From contig JACPSR010000142.1 in NCBI GenBank assembly GCA_016193175.1, positions 1 to 52,331 of the forward strand: a stretch of DNA of 52,331 nt, read 5' to 3'. A program made the translations under genes and the position numbers. Of this stretch, positions 12,417 through 36,302 are shown piece by piece. The notes below the pieces were generated by a model. The model worked only from the letters and a program-made list of their open reading frames with translations. It made no database searches and was not told the origin of the DNA. How positions within the stretch are numbered: position 1 is the stretch's first letter; every line of letters begins with the position of its first letter. This DNA is from Candidatus Omnitrophota bacterium (GTDB lineage: Bacteria; Omnitrophota; Gorgyraeia; Aquiviventales; Aquiviventaceae).

Positions 12417-13097
12417 ATGAACTCCAGTACCTACCGGGACATGCATCTCTTGAACGAGCTGACCTCCAGTCCCGGGGTGACCCAGCGAGAGCTCTCCAAG
12501 CGCATCGGCGTGGCCTTGGGGCTCACCAACCTCATGCTGCGCCGACTGGCCAAAAAAGGCTACATCAAGATCACGGGGACCAAACGCAGCCGCATCCGCT
12601 ATCTCATCACGCCGCAGGGCATCCTCGAGAAGACCCGCCTGACGTACGAGTTTATCCACTACTCCATGCAATTGTACGGTGGCGTGCGCCGCTTCCTGCG
12701 CGAGCGGCTGGCGATCTTGGCACGAGCCGGCGACCGACGGATTCTGCTTTACGGGACCGATGAGCTGGCCGAGATCGCTTTTCTCATCACTCAGGAGATG
12801 GGACTCGAATTGGTGGGCATCGTCGAAGAGCCTCCCACATGGCAGCGATTTCTTGGTCATTCGGTCCTCACGATCGGGGCGGTGTCCTCGCTGAGCTATG
12901 ATCGGATCATTGTGGCCTCGTTACGGGATCGGCGCGCACAGATCCAACAGTTGGTGGCGCTGGGGGTGAGTCCGGAGCGGATGATCATTCTGCCGATCCC
13001 CGGCATGCCGCTCGATCTGGAGGGGATCGTCGCAGCGCCGGCCACGGCGACGTGGGTTCCGGCAGACCTGGCGTTGACTCCGGGAGGCGCACCGTGA
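12417..13097 (+). CDS. Winged-helix (MarR-like, EPS-cluster-associated) transcriptional regulator with C-terminal Rossmann-like domain
   Basis: TQRELSKRIGVALGLTN...KKGYIK...YLITPQGILEK; ILLYGTDELAEI. Confidence 0.88.
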   Translation: MNSSTYRDMHLLNELTSSPGVTQRELSKRIGVALGLTNLMLRRLAKKGYIKITGTKRSRIRYLITPQGILEKTRLTYEFIHYSMQLYGGVRRFLRERLAILARAGDRRILLYGTDELAEIAFLITQEMGLELVGIVEEPPTWQRFLGHSVLTIGAVSSLSYDRIIVASLRDRRAQIQQLVALGVSPERMIILPIPGMPLDLEGIVAAPATATWVPADLALTPGGAP

Positions 13098-13237
13098 TCC
13101 CACGCCCTGGCTGTCCCGCCGAAGGCGGGGCCAAACACCACGTGACGTACGACCAAAGGCAACTAGCCTCTGTGAATGCAGACTCCGAGAGTTTGGCGGG
13201 TTCGCCATGGGCGAACCCCAGCCAGGGCGTGGGATGA
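13094..13237. repeat. Junction element 1 (MITE/REP-like, 17-bp terminal inverted repeats)
   Basis: ATCCCACGCCCTGGCTG (13097-13113) / CAGCCAGGGCGTGGGAT (13219-13235), perfect; internal hairpins CCCGCC-GAA-GGCGGG and GGGTTCGCC-ATG-GGCGAACCC. Confidence 0.85.
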
Positions 13238-14256
13238 AGCGCGTCCTGATCACGGGCGGTGCCGGCTACGTCGGCTGCATGGTGGTCCCCAAGTTACTGG
13301 AAGCCGGCTACGCCGTCGTGGTCTACGACCTGATGCTGTTTGGCTCACATGGCTTGCCCACCCACCCGCACCTGCGCGTTGTCGAAGCAGACATCCGAGA
13401 TACGGCGCGGTTCTCTTCAGCCCTCGACGGCGTGCACAGTGTGATCCACTTGGCGTGCATTTCCAACGATCCAAGTTTTGAATTGGATTCGGCGTTGGGC
13501 AAGTCGATTAACTTTGACTGCTTTGACTCCTTGGTGGCTGCCTGCCGGTCGGCCGGGGTACGACGTTTCATCTACGCCTCGACCAGTTCCGTGTATGGGC
13601 TCAGCGACGCTCCGGAGGTGAGCGAGGAGCATCCCCTGGCCCCGCTGACGGACTACAGCCGGTACAAAGCCTTGTGTGAACCGATCCTGCTGCGTTACCA
13701 ATCCCCTGAGTTCACCACGGTGGTGCTCAGACCGGCGACGGTCTGCGGCTACTCACCGCGCATGCGCTTTGACTTGACGGTCAACATCCTGACGAATCAC
13801 GCGGTGAACCGTCGCGTCATCACGATCTTTGGAGGATCCCAGCGGCGCCCCAACATGCACATTGACGATCTGGCGGAACTGTATGTGCAGCTCCTGCAGG
13901 TTCCTGATGACCTCGTGGCCGGAGAGGTGTTTAACGCCGGCTACCAGAACCGCACGGTGGCGGACCTTGCGGAGATGGTTCGCCGTGTCGTTGAACGCGA
14001 GATTCCTGAGACAATCCCCATCCAGATTCAGACGAGCCCGACGGATGATCTCCGGTCGTACCATATTTCGTCCAAGAAGATCGCTCAGCGACTCAGGTTT
14101 ATTCCCAAGCGGACGATCGAGGATGCCATCCGTGATCTCTGCCGCGCCTTCAAGGCAGGGAAACTCCCGAACAGCCTCACGGACGAGCGGTACGTGAACG
14201 TGAAGACGGTCAAACAGCTTGCCGCGCGCTTGCGCCTGGAGCCGGTTGGGTCATGA
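13234..14256 (+). CDS. NAD-dependent epimerase/dehydratase
   Basis: GGAGYVG, HLACISNDP, YSRYK, RPATVCGYSPRMRFDL. Confidence 0.9.
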   Translation: MKRVLITGGAGYVGCMVVPKLLEAGYAVVVYDLMLFGSHGLPTHPHLRVVEADIRDTARFSSALDGVHSVIHLACISNDPSFELDSALGKSINFDCFDSLVAACRSAGVRRFIYASTSSVYGLSDAPEVSEEHPLAPLTDYSRYKALCEPILLRYQSPEFTTVVLRPATVCGYSPRMRFDLTVNILTNHAVNRRVITIFGGSQRRPNMHIDDLAELYVQLLQVPDDLVAGEVFNAGYQNRTVADLAEMVRRVVEREIPETIPIQIQTSPTDDLRSYHISSKKIAQRLRFIPKRTIEDAIRDLCRAFKAGKLPNSLTDERYVNVKTVKQLAARLRLEPVGS

Positions 14257-14387
14257 TCCCCCCACCTACGGCGGGCTGTCAAAGACAGCCCATGCCACCT
14301 GAGCGCAGGACAAGCTGGCTCCCTCCCTACCGGAATGATGGGTGCATTGCCACGCCAAAGGCGTGGCAGCCGCAGGTGGGGGGATGA
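14253..14387. repeat. Junction element 2
   Basis: ATCCCCCCACCTACGGC / GCCGCAGGTGGGGGGAT (1 mismatch); hairpins GGGCTGTC-AAA-GACAGCCC and TGCCACGCC-AAA-GGCGTGGCA. Confidence 0.85.
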
Positions 14388-15382
14388 GTCCGATGCCCCC
14401 CTGTGCCGTGGTAACCGGAGGGGCAGGGTTCATCGGCAGCCACATGGTCGACCTGTTGCTCGATCAGGGCTATCAGGTCCGCGCGGTGGACAACCTCTCC
14501 TGCGGCCGCTGGGACAACCTCGCTCATCATGCCGACAATCCCCGCATGACGTTTGAGCAGCGGGACATCCGGACGCTGCGGCCTGATGAGACGCTCTTCC
14601 AGGGGGTGGAGTCCGTCTTTCATTTCGCCGGGGTCGCCGATATCGTCCCCTCCATTGAGCGGCCCGCCGACTACCTCTTGAACAATGTGATGGGAACCGT
14701 GTGTGTCCTGGAAGCCGCGCGGCACGCGAGGGCGCAGAAAGTGGTGTACGCCGCGTCCTCATCCTGCTACGGCCTTGCGACAGAACTTCCGACGACGGAG
14801 CACGCCCCGATCAGTCCGGAGTATCCGTACGCCCTGAGTAAGTTCTTAGGCGAGCAGGCGGTCCTGCACTGGGGCAAGGTGTACGGGATGCCTGTCGTGT
14901 CCCTTCGAATCTTCAACGCCTATGGCCCGCGCTCGCGCACCACCGGCGCCTATGGGGCGGTCTTTGGTGTGTTTCTGGCCCAGAAACTTGCCGGAAAGCC
15001 CTTCACGGTGGTCGGGGACGGAACCCAACGGCGGGACTTCGCGTTCGTGACGGATGTGGCGCGGGCGTTCTTCCTGGCCGCGGTATCTGACGTGGATCAC
15101 GGGGTCTTTAACGTGGGCACGGGCGCACCCCAATCGATCAACCGTCTCGTGGAGTTGCTCGGCGGCGAGGTGGTGCACATCCCAAAACGGCCCGGGGAGC
15201 CCGACTGTACGTGGGCTGACATCACGACGATCAAGCGACGTCTGGGTTGGGAATCCCACGTGTCGTTTGAAGAGGGGGTGAGGACCATGCTGGAGCGGAT
15301 CGAGGCCTGGCGCGATGCCCCCGTGTGGACGCCTGAGTCGATCGCCGAAGCCACCCAAGAATGGTTCGCATGCCTGAGATAA
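14384..15382 (+). CDS. NAD-dependent epimerase/dehydratase
   Basis: [39 protein letters not shown]. Confidence 0.9.
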   Translation: MSPMPPCAVVTGGAGFIGSHMVDLLLDQGYQVRAVDNLSCGRWDNLAHHADNPRMTFEQRDIRTLRPDETLFQGVESVFHFAGVADIVPSIERPADYLLNNVMGTVCVLEAARHARAQKVVYAASSSCYGLATELPTTEHAPISPEYPYALSKFLGEQAVLHWGKVYGMPVVSLRIFNAYGPRSRTTGAYGAVFGVFLAQKLAGKPFTVVGDGTQRRDFAFVTDVARAFFLAAVSDVDHGVFNVGTGAPQSINRLVELLGGEVVHIPKRPGEPDCTWADITTIKRRLGWESHVSFEEGVRTMLERIEAWRDAPVWTPESIAEATQEWFACLR

Positions 15383-16947
15383 TTGCGCCCGCGTCACCGC
15401 TTCCTTCATCCCCGGCGACTCCAAGGACGACGGAGAAAATCAAACCCCTGGCTGAACTGGCTGCCATCATGACTGGCCTCAAGGCGCAGGGCCAGCGCGT
15501 CGTCCACTGTCATGGCGTGTTCGATCTGCTCCATGTGGGACACATCCGCCATTTCGAGATGGCCAAACGAGAGGGTGATGTCTTGGTGGTGACGGTGACG
15601 CCGGATGCGTTCGTGAACAAGGGGCCTGGGCGACCGCTCTTCAATCAACACCTGCGCGCGGAATCGCTGGCCGCGTTGGAGTGTGTCGCCTACGTGGCCA
15701 TCAACGAGTGGCCCACCGCCGTCGAGACGATTCGCCTCTTGCGGCCCGATGTGTATGCCAAAGGGAAGGAATACGCCGACGCGACCCAGGACGTGACGGG
15801 AAAGATCCGTGAGGAAACGCAGGCCGTCCAGGACGTGGGGGGACGCATCTGCTTCACGGACGACATCACCTTCAGCTCATCCCAGTTGATCAACGATGGC
15901 TTCAGCGTGTTCCCTCCGAAGACTGCGCAGTGGCTGCGGTCCTTCAAGCAGCGCTATTCGGTGGGCGATGTGACGGAGGCGTTGGACCGCACGACGACGC
16001 TCAAGGCCCTGGTTGTGGGGGAGGCGATCATCGATGAGTACGTCTTCTGTGACGGCTTGGGCAAATCCTCGAAAGATCCTGTCTTAGCCTTCCAGTACCG
16101 CTCCACAGAGACGTTTGCCGGCGGGAGCCTGGCAGTTGCGAACCACCTGGCTGGCTTCTGCCGCGAGGTGAGCCTGATCACGGCGCTCGGGGCTTCGGAT
16201 CGCAGCGAGGAGTTCGTGCGCCAGGCGCTGCGCTCGAACGTCCAGTCGCACTTCGTGACGTGGCATGGAGCGCCGACCATCCACAAGCGCCGCTTCGTCG
16301 ACACGCATACCAGCGCAAGGATGTTCGAGCTGTACCTGATGGTTGATGAGCCGCTGGCCAGGGCAACGCAAGCCGACATTCTCCGCGCCCTGCGGCGCGA
16401 GGTGGATCGCTATGATGTGGTCATTGTGGCGGATTACGGGCACGGGATGCTCACGCCGCCCGTGATCAAGCTGCTGTGCGACCGTGCGCGGTTCCTCGCG
16501 GTCAACACCCAGGCCAACGCCGGCAATCGAGGGTTCAACACGATCTCGAGGTACCCCCGCGCTGACTACGTGTGTCTCGCGGGGCATGAGGTGGCGCTGG
16601 AGACCCGCCTGCGGCACGCCGATCAGCGCGAGCTCATCCTGGAAGTCACCAAGCGGATCACCTGTCCGCGGTTCACGGTGACCCAGGGGAGAGGTGGGGT
16701 CCTCCATTACGAGTCAGGTGTGGGGTTCACCGAAGTCCCGGCCTTGGCGACCAAGGTGATCGATCGTGTGGGCGCGGGTGATGCGGTCTTGGCGGTGACC
16801 TCGCTGTTGGTGGCGCAGGGGATTCCCTGGGAGATCGTTGGGTTTGTGGGCAACGTCGCCGGTGCCCAGATGGTGGCGGAGCTTGGCAACCAGGTGACGA
16901 TCGATCGTGTCTCAATGACCAAGGGTGCCGTGGCGCTCATGAAGTGA
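15370..16947 (+). CDS. Bifunctional cytidylyltransferase-like / PfkB sugar kinase (HldE-like, reversed domain order)
   Basis: N-terminal HGVFDLLHVGHIRH; C-terminal DRVGAGDA PfkB signature. Confidence 0.88.
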   Translation: MPEIIAPASPLPSSPATPRTTEKIKPLAELAAIMTGLKAQGQRVVHCHGVFDLLHVGHIRHFEMAKREGDVLVVTVTPDAFVNKGPGRPLFNQHLRAESLAALECVAYVAINEWPTAVETIRLLRPDVYAKGKEYADATQDVTGKIREETQAVQDVGGRICFTDDITFSSSQLINDGFSVFPPKTAQWLRSFKQRYSVGDVTEALDRTTTLKALVVGEAIIDEYVFCDGLGKSSKDPVLAFQYRSTETFAGGSLAVANHLAGFCREVSLITALGASDRSEEFVRQALRSNVQSHFVTWHGAPTIHKRRFVDTHTSARMFELYLMVDEPLARATQADILRALRREVDRYDVVIVADYGHGMLTPPVIKLLCDRARFLAVNTQANAGNRGFNTISRYPRADYVCLAGHEVALETRLRHADQRELILEVTKRITCPRFTVTQGRGGVLHYESGVGFTEVPALATKVIDRVGAGDAVLAVTSLLVAQGIPWEIVGFVGNVAGAQMVAELGNQVTIDRVSMTKGAVALMK

Positions 16948-17591
16948 GCTGGCCGCGGCAGAGCGCGAGGATGATCGGCGTCGATTTCGATAACACCGTC
17001 GTCCGCTACGATGACGTGATGTACCGCGAGGCGCGATCCAGAAGATTGATCGATCCCTCGACGGTTTCCTCGAAGCGCGCCATCCGCGATCAGATTCGGC
17101 GGCTGCCGGATGGTGAGCGGGAGTGGCAACAGCTGCAGGCCATCGTGTATGGGCCCGAAATCCATGAGGCGTCCCTCACCGACGGAGTCGAGGCATTCTT
17201 CCGGACCTGTCGGGAACACGACATCCGCGTGGTCATCATCAGTCACAAGACGACCTACGCCAGTGTCGATGAGACGCAGACGAATCTCCGGATCGCCGCC
17301 TTGGCGTGGATGCGCCGGCATCGAGTGTTCGACCGGAGTGGGTTCGGGTTGTCGAGCGCCGATGTGTATTTTGCCTCCAGTCGACAAGAGAAGATCGCGT
17401 GGATTTCCCGACTTGGGTGTACGGCCTTCATTGATGATCTGGAGGAGACGTTTGCTGAACCGGATTTTCCATCCGATGTCGACAAGATCCTGTACGCTCC
17501 CCACGGACCAATCTCGACGTTGCCGGCGGTGAAGACCATGACCAGTTGGCAGGAAATCCGCGATGCCCTCTTCGCTCCTGTTCAATCCTGA
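16944..17591 (+). CDS. HAD-superfamily hydrolase-like protein
   Basis: IGVDFDNTV, ISHKT, FIDDL. Confidence 0.8.
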   Translation: MSWPRQSARMIGVDFDNTVVRYDDVMYREARSRRLIDPSTVSSKRAIRDQIRRLPDGEREWQQLQAIVYGPEIHEASLTDGVEAFFRTCREHDIRVVIISHKTTYASVDETQTNLRIAALAWMRRHRVFDRSGFGLSSADVYFASSRQEKIAWISRLGCTAFIDDLEETFAEPDFPSDVDKILYAPHGPISTLPAVKTMTSWQEIRDALFAPVQS

Positions 17592-17601
17592 GGTGAAGCC
17601 G

Positions 17602-18642
17602 ATGGACCTGGCCGGAACGCTCGGCCATCTCCTCGGTGCGTCGGTGACGGACCTCGAGGCGATCGGGAATGGACGGAACAGCCAGGTGTATCGCGTGCGC
17701 TGCAGCGATCAACGCCTCTACGCGGCCAAGCGCTACCCCCGCCATCCGTCGGATGCGCGTGATCGATTGGCCACCGAGTTTGATAGCCTACAGTTTCTCT
17801 GGGATGCCGGAATCAGGACGATTCCCCAGCCGGTGGTCGAGGATCGGAGGGCAGGGATGGCCGTGTATGCGTTCATCGATGGAGCGCGGATCCATTCGGA
17901 GCACGTCACGCCTCACGACGTGGACGCGGCGGTTGAGTTTCTGGCAGCCCTGAGGGCGCTGCGAGACCACCCCGAGAGTCATCGGCTGCCGGCGGCTTCT
18001 GAAGCCTGTTTTACTCTTGGAGCCATCGGTGACACCATCGAGGCAAGACTCGGCCGACTGGCCGCGACGGATGCTGAGGGTCCACTGCGTGGGGCCCTTG
18101 AGGACTTCCTCCATCAGGAGTTCAGGCCGGCGTTCCATCGAGTCATGCGGTGGTGTGTGGAGTTGGCTGAACAGGCAGGCCAGTCGGTAACCGAAGAGCT
18201 GCCACAGACATTCAGGACGTTGAGTCCATCCGACGTTGGCTTCCATAACGCTTTGCGCTGTCCGGAAGGCCGGATCGTGTTTGTGGATTTTGAGCATTTC
18301 GGGTGGGACGACCCGGCGAAGATGATCGCCGACTTTCTTCTGCATCCCGCAATGGCGCTCTCCGAGGACCTCAAGCGGTATGTGGTGAGTCGGCTGCTCG
18401 CATGTTTCAAGGAGCAGGTGGCTCTCGGCCTTCGCCTCAGGCTGGTCTACCCCCTCTTTGGGTTGAAGTGGTGCATGATTTTGTTGAATGAGTTCGTCCC
18501 ACAGGATCGGCGGCGACGAGACTTCGCGACGTTTCCATTGCGCGTCCCTGAGGCACTTCAGGCCGAGCAGTTGGCCAAGGCTCGATGGAAACTCCAAAAG
18601 ATCCTTCAGACCTATGAGCGGTTCCCCTACGCTGATCACTGA
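17602..18642 (+). CDS. Aminoglycoside-phosphotransferase-like kinase
   Basis: GRNSQVY, AKRY, SPSDVGFHN, FVDFEHFGWDDP; GAGGTG RBS. Confidence 0.8.
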   Translation: MDLAGTLGHLLGASVTDLEAIGNGRNSQVYRVRCSDQRLYAAKRYPRHPSDARDRLATEFDSLQFLWDAGIRTIPQPVVEDRRAGMAVYAFIDGARIHSEHVTPHDVDAAVEFLAALRALRDHPESHRLPAASEACFTLGAIGDTIEARLGRLAATDAEGPLRGALEDFLHQEFRPAFHRVMRWCVELAEQAGQSVTEELPQTFRTLSPSDVGFHNALRCPEGRIVFVDFEHFGWDDPAKMIADFLLHPAMALSEDLKRYVVSRLLACFKEQVALGLRLRLVYPLFGLKWCMILLNEFVPQDRRRRDFATFPLRVPEALQAEQLAKARWKLQKILQTYERFPYADH

Positions 18643-19492
18643 CACTCAACCGCAGACGCGCTCGGCAACAAGGCTCGATGAGCGGTCACTCGCCTTGCGG
18701 CGGACGATCGTCCGGATGATGGCGGCAGGCTCGCGAGGCCATCTCGGCTCCGCCTGCTCGCTCGTCGAGATCCTGCGGGTCCTCTACGATGAGATCCTGC
18801 GGTATGACCCGCAGCAGCCCCGCTGGCCGTTGCGGGATCGTTGCATCCTCAGCAAGGGGCATGGCTGTCTTGCGCTCTACGCCATCCTGGCCGACAAGGG
18901 GTTTTTCCCCGTGGAGGAACTCGACAAATTTTGTCACGCCGATGGGATTCTGGGAGGCCATCCAGAGCATGGCAAGGTGCCTGGGGTGGAGGCATCAACG
19001 GGAAGCCTGGGACATGGCCTGGCCATCGGGATTGGGTTTGCCCTGGCGGCTGGGCATGACCGCTTGGGACATCGGGTGTTCGTGATCATGAGCGATGGGG
19101 AATGCAACGAAGGGTCGGTCTGGGAAGCCGCGCTGTATGCGAGCAAACACCAACTGAGCCGCCTGACCGTCCTCATTGACTACAACAAGCAACAGTCCTA
19201 CGGCAGCACGTTCGAGGTCTGCGACCTGGAGCCGCTGGCCGACAAGTGGGCCGCGTTCGGTTTTGCGGTTGAAGACGTTGACGGTCATTCCCTCAGCGCC
19301 CTGCGGTCGGTCTTGACGCGAATGCCGCTGCAGTCCTCCAAACCCAGCGCGATCATCTGCCACACGATTAAGGGTAAGGGGATCCCCTACGCGGAAAGCA
19401 ACCCTGAGTGGCACCACAAGAGCAAGATCAGCGATGACGAGGTGCAGCAACTGCTCGCCGTGTTAGCGTCCCCTCCGGGAGTTTCCAGCTGA
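18614..19492 (+). CDS. Transketolase N-terminal (TPP-binding) subunit
   Basis: GHLGS, LSKGH, GHP, STGSLGHGL, SDGECNEGSVWEA, TIKGKG. Confidence 0.92.
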   Translation: MSGSPTLITDTQPQTRSATRLDERSLALRRTIVRMMAAGSRGHLGSACSLVEILRVLYDEILRYDPQQPRWPLRDRCILSKGHGCLALYAILADKGFFPVEELDKFCHADGILGGHPEHGKVPGVEASTGSLGHGLAIGIGFALAAGHDRLGHRVFVIMSDGECNEGSVWEAALYASKHQLSRLTVLIDYNKQQSYGSTFEVCDLEPLADKWAAFGFAVEDVDGHSLSALRSVLTRMPLQSSKPSAIICHTIKGKGIPYAESNPEWHHKSKISDDEVQQLLAVLASPPGVSS

Positions 19493-20439: not shown

Positions 20440-20447
20440 GGATCCCC

Positions 20448-22159: not shown

Positions 22160-22177
22160 AAGGAAGGAGAGTTGGCG

Positions 22178-23278
22178 ATGAGTTCCACAGTGACTGACCG
22201 GATGGTGAAGTTGCCAAGGCCCTATCCCGACCCTGAGTTCTTCAAGGCGACGCTGGCGGAAGGGTTTTCGGCTTTTCCAAAACGCCGGGACAATTACGAA
22301 CGATACAAAGCTGCTCAACGCGGGGAGGTCGTGGACTACCTGCCGATCCGTTTGGATATCGAGAATGTCAGCCGCTGCAACTATCACTGTACCATGTGCC
22401 AGGTCAGCGATTGGCCCGGCATGAAGCGGGCCGACGACATGACCTTTGACGACTACAAGGCGTTGATCGAAAGCCAAGAAGGGCTGGTTGAAATCAAGCT
22501 CCAGGGTATGGGCGAGCCGCTGATGGGGAAGTGCTACGTTGACATGATCCGCTTTGCCCGAGCGCGGCATCTCTGGGTGCGTTCCGTGACGAACGGGTCG
22601 CTGTTGCACCTCGCGAACAACTACCAACAGGTGATCGACGCGGATGTCTGTGAGTTCCACGTCTCAATCGATGGAGCGACTCAACAAACGTATGAGAAGA
22701 TTCGACGGGGTGGACAGTTTGAGAGGGTGATGGAGAACTGTCGACGCCTGAACCGGTACTGCCGGCAGATCAACCGCCGGCGGACGCGGATGTGGACGCT
22801 CGTGCAGAAGGACAATGTCTATGAGGTCGAGCAACTGCCTCTCCTGGCCGCTGAGCTGGGGTTTGATCGCCTCACCCTCTCGTTGGACATCAACGACTGG
22901 GGACAGGATCGCTGGCGAGCGATGAATGATCGAGTGGATGTGCACCGCAGCTTTGACCTCTCGCTGGTGGAGCGTCTGGTTGAGTTGGGCAAGGCGCGTG
23001 GAGTCGAGGTGACATTCTGGTTTATCGATGAGAAATACGACACAGATGATCCCGCCCACCTGTGCCAGTGGCCGTTTGAGCGCTTGTACATCTCCTCCGA
23101 TATGCGGATGGTCCCCTGCTGCATGATGGCCAATCCCGAGATCATGGATCTTGGGGATGCGCACGCCCTCACCACGGAATGGAATGGGGCGAAGATGGTC
23201 GCCTTCCGGCGGATGCACCTGAGCGGGCGGATTCCGAAGCCGTGTCAGTCGTGTTATAAGGCCCCTGCCCAAGGATGA
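22178..23278 (+). CDS. Radical SAM protein with SPASM/Twitch domain
   Basis: CNYHCTMC, GMGEPL, SIDG; C-terminal CQWPF...PCC...CQSC. Confidence 0.88.
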   Translation: MSSTVTDRMVKLPRPYPDPEFFKATLAEGFSAFPKRRDNYERYKAAQRGEVVDYLPIRLDIENVSRCNYHCTMCQVSDWPGMKRADDMTFDDYKALIESQEGLVEIKLQGMGEPLMGKCYVDMIRFARARHLWVRSVTNGSLLHLANNYQQVIDADVCEFHVSIDGATQQTYEKIRRGGQFERVMENCRRLNRYCRQINRRRTRMWTLVQKDNVYEVEQLPLLAAELGFDRLTLSLDINDWGQDRWRAMNDRVDVHRSFDLSLVERLVELGKARGVEVTFWFIDEKYDTDDPAHLCQWPFERLYISSDMRMVPCCMMANPEIMDLGDAHALTTEWNGAKMVAFRRMHLSGRIPKPCQSCYKAPAQG

Positions 23279-23301
23279 GCCGCCAGCAGGTGGTGGGATG
23301 A
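23275..23301. repeat. Junction element 3 (solo right arm)
   Basis: ATGA-GCCGCCAGCAGGTGGTGGG-ATGA; 20/21 match to the reverse complement of the element 4 left arm. Confidence 0.8.
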
Positions 23302-24464: not shown

Positions 24465-24528
24465 GCCTCCCCATGAGGGGTCTTGCGGCCAGATGCAGTC
24501 GGTCGGCTATTGGGGTGTTCGCATTGGT

Positions 24529-26606: not shown

Positions 26607-26621
26607 GAGGGAGGCCCGCCC

Positions 26622-28381: not shown

Positions 28382-28411
28382 GCCGTTCGCTTCACATAGG
28401 GGGAGAACGTC

Positions 28412-29515
28412 ATGATAAAGGTGCTCGTCATCGGCGGGGGATTTGCGGGCTGCTGCGCGTCCCACCTGCTTTCGCAAAAGGGCTGGCACGTCACGCTGAT
28501 TGAAACGGCGCCGTTCCTAGGGGGCGGCTGTAAAACCTTCTTTTACGGGGGGCACCCCTTTACGTACGGACCGCGGCACTTCCTGACCAAGGACGAACGG
28601 CTCTTTGAGTTTCTCAACCAATACGTCCCGATGCGACGCTTTCCAGGACACGAGTTTCTGACGTACGTTGAGCGGGACCCCGGGTTCTATCACTTCCCGA
28701 TCCACCGGGACGACATCGAGCTGATGCCGGATCGCGACAAGATCCTCGGGGAGCTCCAGGGGCTCGACGGCGTGGAGGGAGCCCGGAATCTGGAGGAGTT
28801 CTGGCTGCGCTCGGTGGGATCGACCCTCTACAGCAAGTTCGTGGAAACCTACTCCAAGAAGATGTGGGACATCCCATCGAACACCGAGATCACCGACTTC
28901 GTCTTCACGACCAAAGGTGTGGCCCTCAAGACCGGCCCGAAGGCGGCATGGACGGAAGCGATCTCAGCCTTTCCGATGAAGATCAACGGCTACGATGACT
29001 ATTTCGAGATTGCGACGCGCGACGTTAGCGTCCACCTGAAGACAACGATCGACGCCTTCGACGTTGAGCACCATCGGGTGAACATTGAGGGGGTCTGGCA
29101 GACCTACGACCTCATCGTCAGCAGCATCTCACCGGAGATCATCCTCAACAATGCGTTCGGACCGCTGCGCTGGATCGGGCGCGACTTCTTCAAGATCGTC
29201 CTCCCGGTACCAGAGGTGTTCCCCCCGAACGTCTTCTTCCTCTACTATGCCAACCAGGAGCCCTTCACGCGGATCGTGGAGTACAAGAAGTTCTACCAGT
29301 ACGAGGCGCCGACCACCCTGCTGGGCCTGGAGATCCCGTCGTTCAACAACAAACTCTATCCCTATCCGGCGCGCCAGGATCAGGAGCGGGCCCAGCGGTA
29401 CCTGGACGCCCTGCCTCCGAAGGTCTTTTCCATCGGGCGGGCCGGGGTCTACCGGTATATCGACATTGACGACATCATTGCCCAATGCCTGGACCTGGCC
29501 AAACGAGTCTCGTAG
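28412..29515 (+). CDS. FAD-dependent NDP-pyranose mutase-like (Glf/UGM family)
   Basis: GGGFAG, GPRHF, YSKKMW, FTRIVEYK, YPY, GRAGVYRYIDID. Confidence 0.8.
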   Translation: MIKVLVIGGGFAGCCASHLLSQKGWHVTLIETAPFLGGGCKTFFYGGHPFTYGPRHFLTKDERLFEFLNQYVPMRRFPGHEFLTYVERDPGFYHFPIHRDDIELMPDRDKILGELQGLDGVEGARNLEEFWLRSVGSTLYSKFVETYSKKMWDIPSNTEITDFVFTTKGVALKTGPKAAWTEAISAFPMKINGYDDYFEIATRDVSVHLKTTIDAFDVEHHRVNIEGVWQTYDLIVSSISPEIILNNAFGPLRWIGRDFFKIVLPVPEVFPPNVFFLYYANQEPFTRIVEYKKFYQYEAPTTLLGLEIPSFNNKLYPYPARQDQERAQRYLDALPPKVFSIGRAGVYRYIDIDDIIAQCLDLAKRVS

Positions 29516-29532
29516 ACGCACGCCTCGGTGAG

Positions 29533-30723
29533 TTGAGCGTGGCCGAGTACGATCAGGCTGAGCAAGAGGCCATGGTGCAAACGCCCAATCGGGCCATCAT
29601 GGCGTTCCAGCCGGTCGTCTTCCACCAGTATGGTTATCCCGCGCGCGTCCGAATGGGAGCCGAGTTGTTCAAGTATATCGATGTGATGCATGACCTGCGG
29701 TTTGAAGAGGACTTTCATCAGCTGTTGGGTGGGCTGACGAGGGAGGAGTTTGATCTGCTGCAGCGGCTCACAACGCTCATCTGCCGGTTCAGCGAGGCGC
29801 GGTTTGGGCGCAAGGCGCTGGCGCGCTCAAGCGTGTTGCGCCACCTGTACGTCTTGCGCCACATTCGTTACCTCTCCGGCGGCCGCCCCCTTCGGGTGTT
29901 GGAGATCGGGCCTGGGTGCGGGTACCTGGGTGCCATGCTCATGCTGGAGGGCTATTCCTATGCGGCCATGGATGTCACTCAGGCGTTCTATCTCTACCAG
30001 AACTGGTTTTGGAATTTCATTTCTGATGGACAAGTGACCGAGCTCGCCCGCGACAGCGGCTTAGCACCACGCGAGATGACAGCACCTCAGCCCGGCGGTA
30101 TCCTCCATGTGCCCTGGTGGGAGTTCGTCAGGTCGGCCCTCCGTTCAGGCGCGCCGTTCGATCTAGTGGTCTGCAATCACGCCTTGTGCGAGATGCACCG
30201 TGATAGCCTGGCGTTCATCCTGAAGAGTGCGCGCCGGTTGCTCGATGCCCAAGATGGAAGACCCAAGGCCTTCGTCCTCGAGGGATGGGGGGCGCGCTAC
30301 ATCAGTCTTTCCGAAGCCACCAAGAGTTTCTACCGTGCCGGATTCACCATGGTCCATAATGACGGAGGGATCATCGTCTTCGCGCCCACCGGAACATCGT
30401 GGGCCACCAATGGCCTCCGGTTGCCGCACCACACGCCGTTGAAGCGGCGGTACGTGCGGGGAGTACGGCGCCTGTTGCGACGAGGGATCAATGTGGTGCG
30501 ACGGGCGATGTGGGAGTCGCCGCTGCCCGATATGTCGTACGAGCCTTGCGAGTACCGCGCCTCTGGCAACCCGTTCTCGCGAGCCATTCATGAGGGTCGG
30601 TCGGCTGAGCGTGGCACCAAGACGGTTGGTCTGGAGCAGGTGAACCGGTTCTACACCGAGCTGCTCGGGAGCGAAAATCACCTCAATCCTGATGAGCGGT
30701 TTCTGACGGAGCTGAGACCCTAA
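29533..30723 (+). CDS. Putative sugar O-methyltransferase-like protein (start approximate)
   Basis: VLEIGPGCGYLG, NHALCEM. Confidence 0.7.
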   Translation: MSVAEYDQAEQEAMVQTPNRAIMAFQPVVFHQYGYPARVRMGAELFKYIDVMHDLRFEEDFHQLLGGLTREEFDLLQRLTTLICRFSEARFGRKALARSSVLRHLYVLRHIRYLSGGRPLRVLEIGPGCGYLGAMLMLEGYSYAAMDVTQAFYLYQNWFWNFISDGQVTELARDSGLAPREMTAPQPGGILHVPWWEFVRSALRSGAPFDLVVCNHALCEMHRDSLAFILKSARRLLDAQDGRPKAFVLEGWGARYISLSEATKSFYRAGFTMVHNDGGIIVFAPTGTSWATNGLRLPHHTPLKRRYVRGVRRLLRRGINVVRRAMWESPLPDMSYEPCEYRASGNPFSRAIHEGRSAERGTKTVGLEQVNRFYTELLGSENHLNPDERFLTELRP

Positions 30724-30728
30724 AGAGG

Positions 30729-31712
30729 ATGTCCAGTCAGCGGTACGATCCCTCGGCGGTTGGCTCAGACATTCCACGTTCTTGGCGGCAGTACATGGCC
30801 CGGCGGTACGCCTCCTGGGTCATCGCGGCCCTGGGCCTGAACCGACAGGGGTTCCTCTCGACGGAGATCGTGCAGCAAATCCGCCCAATCTGCACGACCC
30901 CAACCCGCAGCGGTCCGCTGCGCTGTGTCGCCGGCCACGGGCGGTTGCGCTGGAGAGCACTGACGTTCTACACCGAGGAGCCGCAGACCATCACGTGGCT
31001 GGACAGCCTGAAAGAGCACGATCTGCTGTGGGATGTGGGAGCGAATGTCGGCCTCTACGCGATCTACGCCGCCAAGGTCGCCCGCTGCAAGGTGGTGGCG
31101 TTTGAGCCGGAGGCGCAGAACTACGCGCTCCTGTTGGAGAACATCGTGCTCAATGGGGTGCAGGCGTTGGTGGACGCCACGAACCTCCCGGTGACGCGGC
31201 AAACGGGTTTCGGCCGGCTCCACGTCCACGCCCTGACGAAGGGAGGAGCCTACAACCAGTTCGAGCTCTCTGGCTCGGCTGCGTCCGGTGGTGATGGAGA
31301 TCGCCTTCCATCGTCGATTCCTGTGACGCAGGTGCAGCTCGGGGTGTCATTGGACGATCTGATCACCACGTTTCAGTTCCCGTGCCCGACACACATCAAA
31401 GTGGATGTGGATGGCAATGAGCCCGACATCATTGCGGGGGCCCAACGTGTGCTGGCGCACCCGAGGTGCCGGAGCGTGCTCGTGGAGGTGCGCCAGGACG
31501 ACGCGGCACACCAGCGGATCATCAAAGTGCTCCAAGGGCTGGGCTACCGCTGCGTCTCGCAGCAGAACAACTGGGATTTCCGCGCGAATCGCGAGCGGGA
31601 GCACCAGCATCCTGCGCTCAATATGATCTTCACAAAGGGTGCTGGTCACGAGGAGAGGGATTGCGCTGCCGTGAGCGGACAAGGAATCTCCAATGGTGAG
31701 GCGTCACACTGA
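30729..31712 (+). CDS. FkbM family methyltransferase
   Basis: WDVGANVG, AFEPE, HIKVDVDGNE. Confidence 0.9.
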   Translation: MSSQRYDPSAVGSDIPRSWRQYMARRYASWVIAALGLNRQGFLSTEIVQQIRPICTTPTRSGPLRCVAGHGRLRWRALTFYTEEPQTITWLDSLKEHDLLWDVGANVGLYAIYAAKVARCKVVAFEPEAQNYALLLENIVLNGVQALVDATNLPVTRQTGFGRLHVHALTKGGAYNQFELSGSAASGGDGDRLPSSIPVTQVQLGVSLDDLITTFQFPCPTHIKVDVDGNEPDIIAGAQRVLAHPRCRSVLVEVRQDDAAHQRIIKVLQGLGYRCVSQQNNWDFRANREREHQHPALNMIFTKGAGHEERDCAAVSGQGISNGEASH

Positions 31713-31713
31713 G

Positions 31714-33000
31714 ATGGATGTCGCACAACGGTGGAGAAGAGTTGTGGCGTTCGTGCGACGCCAGCCCCGAGACATTTGGGAGGGCGGTTGGCACGCGCTG
31801 CTTCGGAAAATTCTCATGACGCTGGACATCATCCTGGCCGTTCCGTTGGTCTTCGCCGCCAGGCTGCTGCGTCCGTTCGTGCTCATCCGGTTCGCCGGCT
31901 TGCCGATGCAGGGGATCGGACACCTGGCCACTGATATGGAGCTGGTGCTGTGCCGGCGGGACGCCGGCCTCTATGGGCGGACACTTGACCTGTTCTGCAT
32001 CGGCATGCCGGTGTGCAACCAGCAACTCACGCGCATGTGGCAGCGGACGGTGCATGTCAGCCGGTTCGCCCGCACGGCGGAGCGGGTCAATCGATGGCTC
32101 CCAGGTGGATGGCGCAACCGCATCCCCTTCGATGGGGAACCCAGCGACACGCACGGCCTCTTCGCAATGACGACGCCCCACCTATCCTTCATCCCTGAGG
32201 AGCAACGCCAAGGAACCGACGCGTTGCGGCGGCTCAGTGTGCCTGAGGGCCAACCATTTATATGCTTCCACGCCCGCGACTTGGCCTACTATGTGGAGAA
32301 GTCGAGGCGTCTCGATCTCTACCTTAATTCAGACATCCAGACGTATCGGCTTGCCGTTGAAGCCCTGGCGCAACGAGGCTACGTCCTGTTCCGGATGGGT
32401 GCTGTGGTGCAGCGGCCGCTGGTGACCCACAACCCCCGGATCATTGATTATGCCAGCATCGCCCGCACCGATTTCTTGGACATCTTCCTGCCGGCGCACT
32501 GCCGGTTCTACCTGGGCGACGCGAGCGGGTTGCATAACGTCCCACTGATCTTCCGAAGACCGATCGCGATCGTCAACCACAGTTCGTTGGAGTACACGGT
32601 CAGTTGGAACCCCTACGACCTCTTCATCCCCAAGAAGTTGTGGCTGCGGTTGGAGCGACGGCTGATGACATTCCGAGAGATCCTGGGGTCCGGTGCCGGG
32701 CGATTTGCGAGAGACCACCAGTATGCTGAGATGGGCCTTGAGCTGATCAACAACACCCCGGAGGAGATCGCCGCGCTGGCCCTGGAGATGGACGCCAGGC
32801 TCAACGGCACATGGCAGCCGACAGCGGAAGACGAAGAGCTGCAGCGACGCTTTTGGGAGATCTTCCGGTCCTGCACGAGGGTATATGCTTCCGCCCCCTG
32901 GCGGGTCCACCGGCGCATTGGCGCGGAGTTCCTGCGGCAACACCAGGCGTTATTGGAAGAGCGCACGACACCACAGCCGACATTGGTATGCGCGAGTTAA
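31714..33000 (+). CDS. Putative glycosyltransferase (TIGR04372-like)
   Basis: IGHLA, CFHARD, FRMG, DFLDIFL, FIPKK, NTPEEI, IGAEFL. Confidence 0.75.
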   Translation: MDVAQRWRRVVAFVRRQPRDIWEGGWHALLRKILMTLDIILAVPLVFAARLLRPFVLIRFAGLPMQGIGHLATDMELVLCRRDAGLYGRTLDLFCIGMPVCNQQLTRMWQRTVHVSRFARTAERVNRWLPGGWRNRIPFDGEPSDTHGLFAMTTPHLSFIPEEQRQGTDALRRLSVPEGQPFICFHARDLAYYVEKSRRLDLYLNSDIQTYRLAVEALAQRGYVLFRMGAVVQRPLVTHNPRIIDYASIARTDFLDIFLPAHCRFYLGDASGLHNVPLIFRRPIAIVNHSSLEYTVSWNPYDLFIPKKLWLRLERRLMTFREILGSGAGRFARDHQYAEMGLELINNTPEEIAALALEMDARLNGTWQPTAEDEELQRRFWEIFRSCTRVYASAPWRVHRRIGAEFLRQHQALLEERTTPQPTLVCAS

Positions 33001-33029
33001 GCCATCGAACGGAAGAACTCATTCCACGG

Positions 33030-33749
33030 ATGACAGATGTCGTGATCCTATGCGGGGGCAGGGGCACGCGGTTGGGGAGGCTCACGGCGGACACGCCGAA
33101 ACCGCTGTTGCCGGTCGGGGGGGGTCCGTTTCTGTTGCGCCGCTTGACGGCCCTCAGGAGGGAAGGTTTCTCGCGCTTCCTGCTGGCGGCACACTATCTG
33201 GCCGGCCAGTTCCATGTGTTTGCAGAGCACTACGGGCGTGTGGTGCCTGGCCTCGAGGTGATCGAGGAGCCCAAGCCGCTCGGGACCGGCGGGGCCCTGC
33301 GTCACGCCGCCTCGCTCGTCCGCTCGCCGGTCTTCGTCGCCTTGAACGGCGACTCATGGATGGCGCAGCCGGCGGCCCCGGTCCTCGCGGCGCATGGGCA
33401 GGGCAGCCGGCTGATGAGCATGGTCGTCGTGCGCGCCGGGCGCGTGGTAGGCAGCCGCAGCGCGAAGGGGGTCGTGACATTCAGTCCTGAGGGACGGCTT
33501 CTGGGATTCTCGACAGGCGAAGCAGGCATGGACGCATGGGTGAACAGCGGCCTGTATGTCCTGGATCGGGCCATGGTGCAGGGCTGGCCTGAGGGGTCGT
33601 ATGATCTCGAGTCGCATGTGAGCGACCTCGTGCCGTCCGGCGGCTTCGTGTTTCCGTCGGAGGGAACATTCCTCGACATCGGCACCCCGGAGTGCTACGC
33701 GCGCGCCCAGCAGGTCTGGGAGGGATCGGAGGCGGTGGCGAGGCGATGA
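33030..33749 (+). CDS. Sugar-1-phosphate nucleotidyltransferase (HddC-like)
   Basis: LCGGRGTRL, PKPL, EPKPLGTGGA, NGDS, FLDIGTPE. Confidence 0.88.
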   Translation: MTDVVILCGGRGTRLGRLTADTPKPLLPVGGGPFLLRRLTALRREGFSRFLLAAHYLAGQFHVFAEHYGRVVPGLEVIEEPKPLGTGGALRHAASLVRSPVFVALNGDSWMAQPAAPVLAAHGQGSRLMSMVVVRAGRVVGSRSAKGVVTFSPEGRLLGFSTGEAGMDAWVNSGLYVLDRAMVQGWPEGSYDLESHVSDLVPSGGFVFPSEGTFLDIGTPECYARAQQVWEGSEAVARR

Positions 33750-34945
33750 GTGCGCACACCACAGCCGCAAGACCAGACGCCGCGCAGCCGTCGTACCGGA
33801 TCACCTTCGGCCATATCGAAATTGGCGAGGCAGGCCGCCGATTCCTCTCGGAGGCGTTGAGCCGCAACTGGGTCTCCGAGGGCCCGAACGTCCGGCGATT
33901 TGAAGCCGGCTTCGCCAGGAAGTTCGGCTACGGCCATGCCGTGGCGACCAGCTCCGGGACCGATGCGGGGATCGTGGCGATGAGCGCCCTGTTGGAACGG
34001 GGGGCCAAGCGTGGAGAGGAAGTGATCACGCCAGCGCTCGCCTTCGTCTCGACGGCGAACTGCATCCTCGCCGCCGGATTGGTCCCACGGTTCGTCGACG
34101 TGGAGCTTGAGACGCTGAACATCGATCCCGCGAAGATGGAGGCGGCGATGACATCCAAGACGCGGGCGATCCAGGTCGTCCACACGATGGGCAAGCCCTG
34201 CGCGATGGGCGAGATCCTTGCGATCGCGAAGCGCCATCATCTGCTCGTCATCGAGGATTGCTGCGAGGCTCATGGGGCGACGCTCAACGGCCAGGTGATC
34301 GGGTCCTTCGGCGCGATGGGGCTCTTCAGCTTCTACGCCGCCCATCTCATCTGCAGCGGCGAGGGCGGGATGATCTCCACCAACGACGCGGAGCTGGCGG
34401 GGTTGTGCCGCTCGATCCGGTCGCACGGTCGGCGGGGCGGGCAACCGTACTTTCACTTCGACCAGGTCGGCTTCAACTCCAAGATGAACGATCTGGAAGC
34501 CGCCATCGGCCTCGAGGGGCTTGAGCTGTTTGACCAGACCTTCGCCATCCGTCGGCGGCATCTCGCCCGCCTGAGGGAGCTGCTGTCGCCGCTGGAGGAC
34601 AGGGTGATCCTCTATCCCGATGGGCGCGGGGAGGTCATCAGTCCGCATGCGATGCCGTTGGTCCTGCGGGACGAGCGGGCATCCATTGAGCCGCTCTATC
34701 GGCATCTCGAGCACGCTGGCATTCAGTGCAAGACGCTCTTTGGCTCACTCCCCACTCAGCACCGGGCATTTGCGTTTCTCGGCTACCGGCCAGGGGACTT
34801 CCCGGTCGCAGAGCGGATCGGCCGAACGGGTCTCCATTTTGGGGTGCACCAGTATTTGACGGAGGACGACGTGGAGTATGCGGCTGATACCGTGCGGTCA
34901 TACTTCACCAGGAGCAACGCGATGAGTCACTCCCGGAGCCGATGA
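33746..34945 (+). CDS. DegT-fold PLP enzyme with His at the catalytic position (ColD-like 3-dehydratase candidate)
   Basis: EDCCEAHGA, SFYAAHLICSGEGG. Confidence 0.8.
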   Translation: MSAHTTAARPDAAQPSYRITFGHIEIGEAGRRFLSEALSRNWVSEGPNVRRFEAGFARKFGYGHAVATSSGTDAGIVAMSALLERGAKRGEEVITPALAFVSTANCILAAGLVPRFVDVELETLNIDPAKMEAAMTSKTRAIQVVHTMGKPCAMGEILAIAKRHHLLVIEDCCEAHGATLNGQVIGSFGAMGLFSFYAAHLICSGEGGMISTNDAELAGLCRSIRSHGRRGGQPYFHFDQVGFNSKMNDLEAAIGLEGLELFDQTFAIRRRHLARLRELLSPLEDRVILYPDGRGEVISPHAMPLVLRDERASIEPLYRHLEHAGIQCKTLFGSLPTQHRAFAFLGYRPGDFPVAERIGRTGLHFGVHQYLTEDDVEYAADTVRSYFTRSNAMSHSRSR

Positions 34946-35778
34946 ACAACGCGCCAGTCTTGGTAACCGGAGCCCATGGATTTTTGGGCCGCAATGTTGT
35001 TGAAGCGCTGAACGATTTCAAGGTCTTTGCCCCTCCTCGCAGCGAACTGGATTGCCGTGATGTTGGGGAGCTATCCGATTATGTCGCTCGTCACGCCATT
35101 CGATTCGTGGTGCATTGCGCCGGGCCGGGCACGCAGCCAAAGCGCGACGAGCCCGGCTGTTTCGACAACATCGTCGGTATGTTTTTCAATCTCGTGCGGC
35201 TGCGAGAGCGGTTTGACAAGGTCATTTGCGTAGGAACGGGCCATGAGTTTCTCGCGCAAGGCCGTCTGAGTGATCTGCCCTGCGTGAAGAGCTACCGGCT
35301 TCTGCCTGAGAATCTGTATGGCTTCGCCAAGCTGATCTGCAACAACTTCATCCATGACCATGGGCTGCAGAACTTCATCAATGTGCGCATCTTCTACGCG
35401 TTTGGCAAGCATGAGGATCCCGACGCGCGTCTCATGCCGCGTGCAATCAGCCATCTGCTGGACAACACAGACGTCTTCATCGATCACGATGCGTTGTTGA
35501 GCTTCATCTACGCCACGGATTTCGCGCGGTTCATCGCCACGCTGCTCACGGCTGAGCGGTATCGCGCGAGCTATCACGCCTGCTACCGGCAGCCGATGCG
35601 CCTGAGCGCCCTCTTGGCGCAAGCGAAGGATCTGTGCGGTTCACGCTCCAAGATCGTCATGCAAGATCGCCGTTGCGAGGTCTACACGTCAGCGGCTTAC
35701 TTGCCAGGCTTTCAGCACAGCGAGAAGAATGTGGTTGAACTCCTTGAGCATTACACGCAACCGGCGGTCGCGGCATGA
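34942..35778 (+). CDS. NAD-dependent epimerase/reductase
   Basis: TGAHGFLG, YGFAK. Confidence 0.82.
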   Translation: MNNAPVLVTGAHGFLGRNVVEALNDFKVFAPPRSELDCRDVGELSDYVARHAIRFVVHCAGPGTQPKRDEPGCFDNIVGMFFNLVRLRERFDKVICVGTGHEFLAQGRLSDLPCVKSYRLLPENLYGFAKLICNNFIHDHGLQNFINVRIFYAFGKHEDPDARLMPRAISHLLDNTDVFIDHDALLSFIYATDFARFIATLLTAERYRASYHACYRQPMRLSALLAQAKDLCGSRSKIVMQDRRCEVYTSAAYLPGFQHSEKNVVELLEHYTQPAVAA

Positions 35779-36158
35779 TGCATCCCATCGAATCGTTTGC
35801 CGATGATCGCGTGCGCCGGTATTTCGACGTCTTTCCTCAACTCAGTCCCGAGCAGGTCACGGTGTCCAAAATCTCCAAAGCTGGCACGATTAACGCGTGG
35901 CATCGGCATAAGCGCCAGACCGATTGGTTCGTCGTCATCGAGGGCCGGCTGGAAGCCTTCATTCTCACCAAAGAGAAACACCTGACCCGGCATATGTTGG
36001 ACGGGGCCAGTCCGCAATGCTTGGAGATTCAGCCAGGACTCTACCACGGCTGGAAATCGCTTCAAGATAACACCATCCTGGTCTATTGCCTGAGTCACAA
36101 GCACGACGAGAAGGATGAGGAACGGGTGCCCTACGAGACGATGGGGGTGCCGCTGTGA
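35775..36158 (+). CDS. RmlC-like cupin (3,5-epimerase family)
   Basis: F.DDR, AWHRH..QTDWF, IQPGLYHG. Confidence 0.8.
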   Translation: MMHPIESFADDRVRRYFDVFPQLSPEQVTVSKISKAGTINAWHRHKRQTDWFVVIEGRLEAFILTKEKHLTRHMLDGASPQCLEIQPGLYHGWKSLQDNTILVYCLSHKHDEKDEERVPYETMGVPL

Positions 36159-36302
36159 TCCCCCCACCTGCTGGCGGCAGTGCCGCCAACAACAAGAAAC
36201 AGCGAGTTGGCACTGCCGGGGTTGGCTGGCAGGTGCCCGTTACGGAGGGATGCCAACCCACGGCTCCGCCGCTGGCGGAGCCTCCAGCAGGTGGGGGGAT
36301 GA
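36155..36302. repeat. Junction element 4
   Basis: ATCCCCCCACCTGCTGG (36158-36174) / CCAGCAGGTGGGGGGAT (36284-36300), perfect; three internal stems including GGCTCCGCC-GCT-GGCGGAGCC. Confidence 0.88.

Follow-up and report, generated by a model that had tools for sequence, protein, structure and literature searches.

Palindromic MITE-like elements of Candidatus Omnitrophota occupy stop/start overlaps and probably relay translational coupling

The window analysed in this work is a stretch of 52,331 nucleotides from a Candidatus Omnitrophota bacterium (GenBank assembly GCA_016193175.1, contig JACPSR010000142.1, positions 1 to 52,331 of the forward strand), in which four gene junctions carry short palindromic elements or what is left of them. 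These elements are inserted in the manner of a MITE (a miniature transposable element with inverted repeats), with a 3-bp target duplication of the form TNA. We consider it probable that they represent a non-autonomous, MITE-like family of DNA transposons of Candidatus Omnitrophota which relays translational coupling across its own insertion. The relay of ribosomes, which would run through a mini open reading frame (mini-ORF) inside each element, is suggested by the length and the reading frames of a large set of copies.

After insertion, the left copy of the duplicated TGA still terminates the upstream gene, and the terminal A of the element together with the right TGA rebuilds an ATGA, giving the downstream gene a new ATG even where the old start had been GTG. 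In the proposed mechanism, the old RTG, whose ribosome-binding site would lie inside the upstream gene, would be orphaned at the left end and would open the mini-ORF. Ribosomes finishing the upstream gene, or starting at the old RTG, would translate through the element, melt the highly stable stem burying the new AUG, terminate on the new AUGA and re-initiate there, so that the coupling would be relayed. According to the predicted fold the new AUG would stay buried until a ribosome passes, and coupling would therefore be enforced. Copies breaking the relay would be removed by selection.

Occupied junctions, target duplication and empty sites

The contig carrying the window (C110) belongs to a metagenome-assembled genome (MAG) of 1.75 Mb and 87% completeness, here called G000. 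The elements lie in a long, co-directional sugar-modification cluster, where the genes on either side of them include those for two NAD-dependent epimerases, a radical SAM/SPASM protein and C-methyltransferases. A first-pass annotation of the window had described four junctions of the form RTGA-[element]-ATGA, three of them with 17-bp terminal inverted repeats and one with a lone right arm, and all of them read as described. At the first junction, the left TGA (13095–13097, forward strand, as are the other features of the four junctions) is the stop of the upstream gene (12417–13097), and the GTG at 13094–13096, the orphaned former start, now opens the mini-ORF. Element 1 proper (TCCC...GGGA, 13098–13234) has internal GC hairpins, and its terminal inverted repeats of 17 nt are perfect; in the repeat delimited by 13097–13235, each of the 17 bases is paired. 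Its last A (13234) and the right TGA (13235–13237) make the new ATGA, which is both the start of an epimerase gene and the stop of a 47-aa mini-ORF (13094–13237). Element 2 occupies 14254–14387 including both TGAs (14254–14256 and 14385–14387), with the new ATG at 14384, an inverted repeat of 17 nt with one mismatch (14256–14385) and a mini-ORF of 44 aa (14253–14387). The third junction is a deletion derivative, in which a 20-nt right arm (23279–23298) stands alone between two TGAs (23276–23301); the junction has an 8-aa mini-ORF (23275–23301), and the arm provides AGGTG and the ATG (23298) for a methyltransferase gene. Element 4 (36156–36302 with both TGAs, 36156–36158 and 36300–36302) has an inverted repeat of 21 nt with one mismatch (36158–36300). 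Its length leaves a remainder of 2 when divided by three, so the GTG at 36155 is in frame with the ATG at 36299 and gives a 48-codon N-terminal extension, as had also been claimed; a Pfam zinc-binding domain begins at residue 6 counted from the ATG at 36299. The left arms of these junctions carry CACCT and the right arms AGGTG. Positions 12417 to 38265 of the window hold one co-directional cluster of about 25 sugar-nucleotide and methyltransferase genes. Within it the open reading frame (ORF) list has six plain 4-nt overlaps (at 16944, 20436, 21107, 27953, 34942 and 35775), which are potential empty targets beside the four occupied junctions.

The ORFs flanking the elements are genuine genes. 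In the window, Pfam domains start 4–10 residues past the proposed ATGs. Among the 96 high-GC copies of the family, the frame ending at the left TGA had the highest third-position GC in 68 (128 of 960 for random TGAs), and the frame of the right ATG in 82 (485 of 953 for random ATGAs). Third-position GC was adopted as a gene test after the counting of ORF pairs at plain RTGA junctions had proved unspecific. This count, made in the GC-rich G000 with ORFs of at least 100 codons on both sides, was dropped because the CTGA control gave 399 junctions and ATGA 363.

The target duplication was assessed by comparing the three bases outside TCCC...GGGA without imposing any flank. They were identical on both sides in 149 of 166 copies (17 of 21 in G000 and 132 of 145 in other loci), the duplicated triplets being TGA/TCA in 131 cases, TAA/TTA in 15, TGG in two and CTT in one. 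A 2-bp duplication of AT was rejected, as it accounts neither for an R in front of the left TGA nor for the pairs of TAA, TGG and CTT. The possibility that the repeats were integron attC sites, which are palindromes that follow cassette ORFs, was also set aside, in view of the target duplication and of the adjacency of the flanking genes in relatives. A recoding of TGA was discarded because the two TGAs of an element are in different frames.

Four occupied junctions of G000 were compared with the orthologous junctions of two or three relatives each, which gave 11 comparisons. Seven showed ATGA or GTGA, two TGATG, one TAATG and one another arrangement, so that ten were uninterrupted stop/start overlaps. 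The junction of element 1 is ATGA in G001, GTGA in G025 and TAATG in G019; that of element 2 is TGATG in G001, ATGA in G025 and a different spacer in G019. The junction at C110:90220 is ATGA in both G019 and G001, and that at C110:96938 is TGATG in G019 and ATGA in G002 and G001. No usable orthologous junction was obtained for the third and fourth junctions of the window in G001, G019, G025, G002 or G011. Because relatives show plain overlaps, the ancestral state is taken to be an uninterrupted stop/start overlap. The spacer of G019 orthologous to the element 2 junction (contig C12, locus L003, about 2470–2580) is made of short tandem repeats with GGCTCGA and CCACGAG units. In addition, the two flanks of element 1 stand together on one contig from a second study (X5, record 9), with about 140 fewer letters between them than in the window; its middle part is unaligned, and it only hints at an empty allele of this element. 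Terminal inverted repeats, target duplication and pairs of filled and empty sites, the marks of a MITE, are thus all present.

The sites chosen share a wider context. Immediately before the left TGA, the 147 copies that could be oriented have A 121 times, G 17 times, T 5 times and C 4 times. Among the TGA-flanked copies A is found at −1 in 109 of 131, and T at +1 in about 41% of all copies, for a background of about 25% each. In 10 of the 15 TAA-flanked copies, which are not at start/stop overlaps, an A at −1 is combined with a T at +1. The target context is the palindrome A-TNA-T, an intrinsic preference, and ATGA(T) junctions are hit because of it. Targeting of coupled junctions, as proposed in the first-pass annotation, is therefore right in that such junctions are hit; it is largely explained by this preference, which also acts at non-coding TAA sites, together with purifying selection. 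Nine of the 15 TAA-flanked copies (L019 to L136) lie in TA-TAA-T, that is, TATAAT, which resembles a −10 promoter hexamer.

Relay reading frame and predicted RNA fold

Element length was measured from the A of the left TGA to the T of the right TGA. Counted from the old RTG, lengths of class 1 (modulo 3) end on the new ATGA, those of class 2 fuse to the next gene and those of class 0 enter it out of frame. The 147 oriented copies fell into classes 1, 2 and 0 as 113, 20 and 14, and the histogram of lengths advances in steps of three (88, 91, 94, 97, 100, 103, 106, 109, 112, 115 and on). With one representative for each of the 113 interior clusters the distribution was 84/18/11 (chi-square p 2e-19, a value that overstates independence even after clustering, because the copies share descent). 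It was 70/3/5 when R preceded the TGA and the upstream ORF had at least 100 codons. By contrast with these sets, the TAA-flanked copies, which serve as an internal control, showed no frame bias (4, 5 and 5).

The same bias was observed in the stop codons. The relay frame was free of stops in 127 of 147 copies and the other two sense frames in 81 and 80. In the TGA set, sense frame 1 was open in 120 of 132 copies, vs 75 and 70 for the other sense frames, 81, 84 and 78 for the antisense frames and about 64 for shuffled interiors. In low-GC genomes, in which open frames are scarcer, the relay frame was open in 18 of 24, vs 6 and 10. Since the bias survives clustering and is absent both on the antisense strand and in TAA-flanked copies, the relay mini-ORF is under selection. 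Chance preservation of the frame, which the first-pass annotation could not dismiss with four cases, is excluded with 147 copies, and the mobile, translationally neutral repeat that it had described is borne out by the TNA duplication, the empty sites, the lineage-specific copy numbers and arm variants and this sense-specific preservation. The relay peptides resemble one another only at the two ends, which the arms encode (IP(P/R)P... and ...Q(V/G)(V/G)G), and have unrelated interiors; it would be the act of translation that is conserved and not its product.

These data also bear on a possible bypass, in which the ribosome would shunt or hop from the stop at the 5' base of the hairpin to the AUG at its 3' base, leaving the interior untranslated. 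The stop and the start do stand at opposite sides of the base of one very stable stem. However, a bypass needs no conserved frame, and both length modulo 3 and the openness of the sense frame are strongly selected, which makes this explanation highly improbable.

As for the signals for initiation, the 12 nt preceding the left TGA are G-rich, and the right arm (CAGGTGG... or CAGGGCG...) sits 4–10 nt 5' of the new ATG, so that a G-rich stretch occupies the place expected for a Shine-Dalgarno (SD) sequence. The anti-SD sequence is assumed here and not read, because no 16S 3' end was found in the G000 MAG.

The predicted RNA folds of the full elements 1, 2 and 4 have energies of −85.3, −83.3 and −97.2 kcal/mol (z −8.5, −7.4 and −7.1), and none of 200 shuffles reached the stability of the full elements. 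The solo arm, folded likewise, gave no structure (z 0.35). In the predicted folds the closing stem starts at the A of the upstream UGA, which pairs with the U of the downstream AUG, and it buries the AU of this start codon together with the G-rich stretch, in agreement with the pairing between the arms that had been pointed out in the first-pass annotation. A ribosome-opened coupling switch, also put forward there, fits this fold, but the palindrome carries no signature of the RNA strand. Mismatches of the closing stem are G:T in 14 cases and A:C in 15, and out of 147 copies only 74 fold more stably as the sense strand than as the antisense strand. A 10-member subfamily has double changes in 8 of 38 pairs and one-sided (G-U) changes in none. 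Moreover, the same subfamily was found in both orientations relative to genes. Because the structure shows no RNA-strand signature, the palindrome looks like a DNA-level property of a mobile element and not like an RNA device kept by the host. No match at the gathering score was obtained with Rfam across the whole window. The sole match below this threshold was that of the epsC RNA to element 2 (14248–14399, 22.4 bits for a gathering score of 42, E 0.34), which probably reflects a chance similarity of GC-rich multi-hairpin folds.

We also weighed the elements as RNA devices beneficial to the host, in which the stem would hide the downstream ribosome-binding site, so that a gene would be translated only if its predecessor is. 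They would then act as a switch that makes coupling obligatory, as an insulator or as a stabiliser of the mRNA, and would be maintained by positive selection instead of being just tolerated. This would account for the very stable structures, for a closing stem lying over the AUG and the SD-like stretch and for the pairing of CACCT in the left arm with AGGTG in the right one. It would be favoured as well by a relative of element 2 which, at a different locus in another genus (G009), is 87% identical, vs about 67–73% for the neighbouring genes. The exact arms point the same way, with 28 right and 16 left and with all four true solo arms of G000 being right arms adjoining ATGA, but the 28-to-16 asymmetry is not significant (p 0.096). 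Against such a device stand the equal strands, the covarying pairs without G-U intermediates, the plain overlaps with which close relatives cope at the same junctions and the copies at TAA sites, which have no frame bias. We consider it unlikely.

Extent of the family and the mobilising enzyme

Exact patterns were used for counting the arms, because a 16-nt arm profile run with nhmmer had proved too weak, failing to detect the CCCACC variants. An inverted-repeat scan of G000 gave 25 pairs, 19 of them in the family. A genome search for the arms, as suggested in the first-pass annotation, recovered a large family: of the 35 genomes of the window's GTDB family, 31 contain the 13-nt arm pattern, with up to 93 matches per genome (0–1 with the reversed pattern as control). 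Among 251 genomes sampled evenly across the phylum, only nine had at least 10 arm matches, namely G000, one from a second family of its class, six from a single family in another class and one from a fourth family. The element family is abundant in the window's own family and patchy elsewhere in Candidatus Omnitrophota. Public contigs with matches are titled Candidatus Omnitrophota from groundwater, with some Planctomycetales and one Chloroflexota. The contig titled Chloroflexota bacterium (L076) holds one complete element at 516–609, which could mean that the contig was wrongly binned or that the element was transferred beyond Omnitrophota.

The copies are 80–163 bp long, have terminal inverted repeats of 12–17 nt around nested GC hairpins and contain no transposase gene, their only ORFs being the relay frames of 27–55 aa, as befits a MITE. 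Low-GC members have the same arms with AT-rich interiors. The dominant arm variant differs from lineage to lineage, and one interior subfamily occurs with three arm variants in different genomes, both arms having changed together. Recent activity of the family is likely, because many copies of G016 have an identical spacing of 148 or 151 nt, G000 contains near-identical pairs (for example C110:125931 and C110:71268) and the G009 relative of element 2 remains so similar. Elements were also found in tandem, whole and sharing single TGAs (...GGGATGATCCC...) with chained relay ORFs, at 233–555 of L077 and at 166–669 of contig C112 of G000. Each copy recreates ATGAT and is therefore a target for the next. 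Decay is seen in several copies of G000 with a damaged left arm and an intact right one (C48, C70, C129, C132 and C110:71268). The retention of right arms is what one would expect if selection acts on the arm from which the start now comes. At about 12525 of contig C66 of G000, two ribosomal-protein genes, read as S17/L14 and unconfirmed by Pfam, have a solo right arm at their junction, and the upstream protein appears C-terminally extended through the arm to the ATGA.

To look for the mobilising enzyme, Y1_Tnp, DDE_Tnp_1 and DDE_Tnp_4 were searched in the 35 family genomes, DDE_Tnp_1_2 in the 251 genomes of the phylum, and rve and DDE_3 in five element-rich genomes. DDE_Tnp_1 (PF01609) was present in 10 of the 35 genomes and not found in G000, and the fetched loci had no element ends. 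DDE_Tnp_4 (PF13359) was present in one of 35, and DDE_Tnp_1_2 (PF13586) in seven of 251, none of them element-rich. The presence of Y1_Tnp or DDE_Tnp_1 was uncoupled from arm counts. None of the arm pairs 300–4000 bp apart encloses a transposase; the sequence examined showed neighbouring separate elements around ordinary genes. The first-pass annotation had stated that the window lacks a cognate transposase, and this holds for Y1_Tnp, DDE_Tnp_1, DDE_Tnp_4 and DDE_Tnp_1_2, none of which had a hit on contig C110, the set of families being not exhaustive. Fragmented MAGs often miss multi-copy insertion sequences (IS), and because these genomes are such MAGs the results do not amount to the absence of the enzyme. 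Given the TNA duplication, it is probably a DDE transposase of the IS5 type.

A second kind of enzyme was also considered. In REPIN-like repeats, or in other repeats recognised as hairpins, the element would be moved as single-stranded DNA by an HUH/Y1 transposase (RAYT or IS200/IS605-like) or by a structure-specific recombinase. Nested GC-rich hairpins whose changes are fully compensated, a stem that keeps its length while its sequence varies, the Y1_Tnp genes present in 25 of the 35 family genomes and the lack of a DDE partner among the families searched would all agree with such a process. However, the 3-nt flanks are identical within a copy and vary between copies (TGA, TAA, TGG, CTT), as target duplications do. 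This argues against HUH enzymes, whose transposition makes none. No arms were found at the six fetched Y1_Tnp loci or at the two Y1_Tnp hits of G000. In addition, Y1_Tnp is absent from the hits in the element-rich G016, G019, G021 and G047 and present in the arm-free G044, G008 and G007. Mobilisation of this kind is, in our opinion, quite improbable.

Several observations weigh against a MITE-like family that relays coupling. The 29 transposase loci that were fetched had no arms (six among the Y1_Tnp hits listed, 12 of DDE_Tnp_1, two of DDE_Tnp_4, seven of DDE_Tnp_1_2, one of rve and one of DDE_3), so no Y1/HUH or DDE gene with the same ends was recovered from them. G019, which is 90% complete and has 46 arm matches, gave no hit to Y1_Tnp, DDE_Tnp_1, DDE_Tnp_4, rve or DDE_3 and lies outside the DDE_Tnp_1_2 sample. 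The inner stem positions 13–17 differ among copies and yet remain complementary, going from one Watson-Crick pair to another, and fully compensated changes without one-sided intermediates are unusual for a plain MITE of the DDE type. Perfect repeats have a median length of 17 nt, and 94 of 147 copies have exactly this length; identical 12-nt arms are found in 135 of 147, and positions 13–18 show 92 distinct hexamers. Finally, besides the shared descent of the copies mentioned above, the evidence for the relay consists of signatures of selection, from which it is inferred.

The fixed 17-bp covarying stem, the fully compensated changes and the failure to find a partner enzyme in genomes 90–93% complete hint at an unconventional mechanism, perhaps a process templated by structure or recognising hairpins and combined with a staggered TNA cut. 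Accordingly, it is possible, albeit rather unlikely, that the family is more than a parasite that is tolerated, namely a mobile element whose ends are shaped to rebuild the stop, the SD-like stretch and the start, which moves by a mechanism outside the known transposase families and colonises the only kind of site remaining in streamlined genomes rich in overlaps. On this reading, the host may in some operons have come to need the elements for coupling.

Related systems and further observations

The closest known analogue of the MITE-like elements described here is the mycobacterial interspersed repetitive unit (MIRU), the likeness being one of published description. In the available text of the sources citing Supply et al. 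(1997), MIRUs are 40–100 bp long, occur in tens of copies per genome between the genes of polycistronic operons, have filled and empty sites with short direct repeats and carry GC-rich internal inverted repeats (PMC12548453, a 2025 review, and Delihas 2011, PMC3184786). Their ORF overlaps the flanking stop and start at its ends (−4 nt spacing), which has been read as an insertion of minimal effect (PMC12548453, PMC3184786). As far as these accounts go, both elements share an ORF inside the repeat which overlaps the stop and the start of the flanking operon genes. MIRUs have mainly been described as tandem direct repeat units whose terminal repeats are only imperfect. By contrast, the Omnitrophota element is a single unit from a different phylum; its 17-nt inverted repeats are near-perfect, its TNA duplication measures 3 bp, its closing stem hides the new start, and its tandem arrays are built of palindromic units.

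The IS1031 subgroup of the IS5 family prefers a TNA target, according to the part of the source that was available (PMC1676026). MITEs of this subgroup resemble the Omnitrophota elements in their inverted repeats, 3-bp TNA duplication, small size, lack of transposase, many copies and filled and empty sites. They differ in that no IS with the Omnitrophota ends was found and in that the inner part of the terminal repeat of the element covaries rather than being conserved. Of the features expected from such a relationship, the TNA duplication was found, and a cognate DDE_Tnp_1-type transposase in the same genomes was not, an absence weakened by the incompleteness of the MAGs.

Other repeats share single features with the family. 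The available passages on Chunjie, a MITE found in Geobacter uraniireducens, describe an A+T-rich element of 178–235 bp, with 21-bp repeats and 9-bp direct repeats (PMC10969869, PMC3184786), which is located in an operon and has highly stable RNA folds, the operon structure being undisturbed according to the title of Chen et al. 2008 (PMC10969869, PMC3184786). Insertion in an operon and stable folds are common to both elements, and those passages describe neither the regeneration of stop and start nor a relay ORF. Rickettsia palindromic elements are, in the portion available, palindromic and frame-preserving insertions after which the host gene product survives (PMC10969869). They are presented as in-frame peptide insertions inside ORFs, whereas the Omnitrophota elements lie between ORFs with a separate relay ORF, and fusion of the Rickettsia type is rare among the latter, as only 20 of 147 put the old RTG in frame with the next gene. 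[quoted passage not shown] The Omnitrophota elements differ from them by the target duplication, by Y1 genes that, where examined, were not flanked by the repeat and by a presence of Y1 that does not track it. Stable structures just past stop codons have been reported to govern re-initiation, in the available part of another work (PMC7518266). A literature search, supplementary files excluded, turned up no account of the family, nor of any element of this sort in Omnitrophota. The novelty lies in an architecture of inverted repeats and TNA duplication by which both codons are rebuilt, in the ATNAT target, in the phylum and in the quantitative evidence of selection on the relay frame.

The family illustrates how a mobile element can spread within the dense operons of small genomes without polar effects, the stop being restored by the target duplication, the start by the end of the element and the ribosomes being relayed by a throw-away ORF. 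The 3-nt periodicity of length and the sense-only open frame would constitute a signature that non-functional mini-ORFs are translated and matter, a signature obtained from sequence alone in an uncultivated phylum. The principle proposed for MIRUs would have in this family a second and independent case, one with far more copies open to analysis, and the family offers natural parts for synthetic bicistronic designs. For annotation, Omnitrophota "genes" of 30–50 aa that start with MIP(P/R)P and end with Q(V/G)(V/G)G should be regarded as relay frames of these elements.

A scan for small hairpins in G000 also revealed a second, unrelated repeat family, which has a conserved stretch of about 60 nt around a CCCGCC-loop-GGCG(A/G)G hairpin, with tttctcgctc as the flank at one end and gagcgcggcctctgt or gcccgctcgaaa at the other. 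Its copies are located at C20:1963, C26:4155, C65:10078, C93:1869, C103:24407, C108:14075, C140:9953 and C140:11138.

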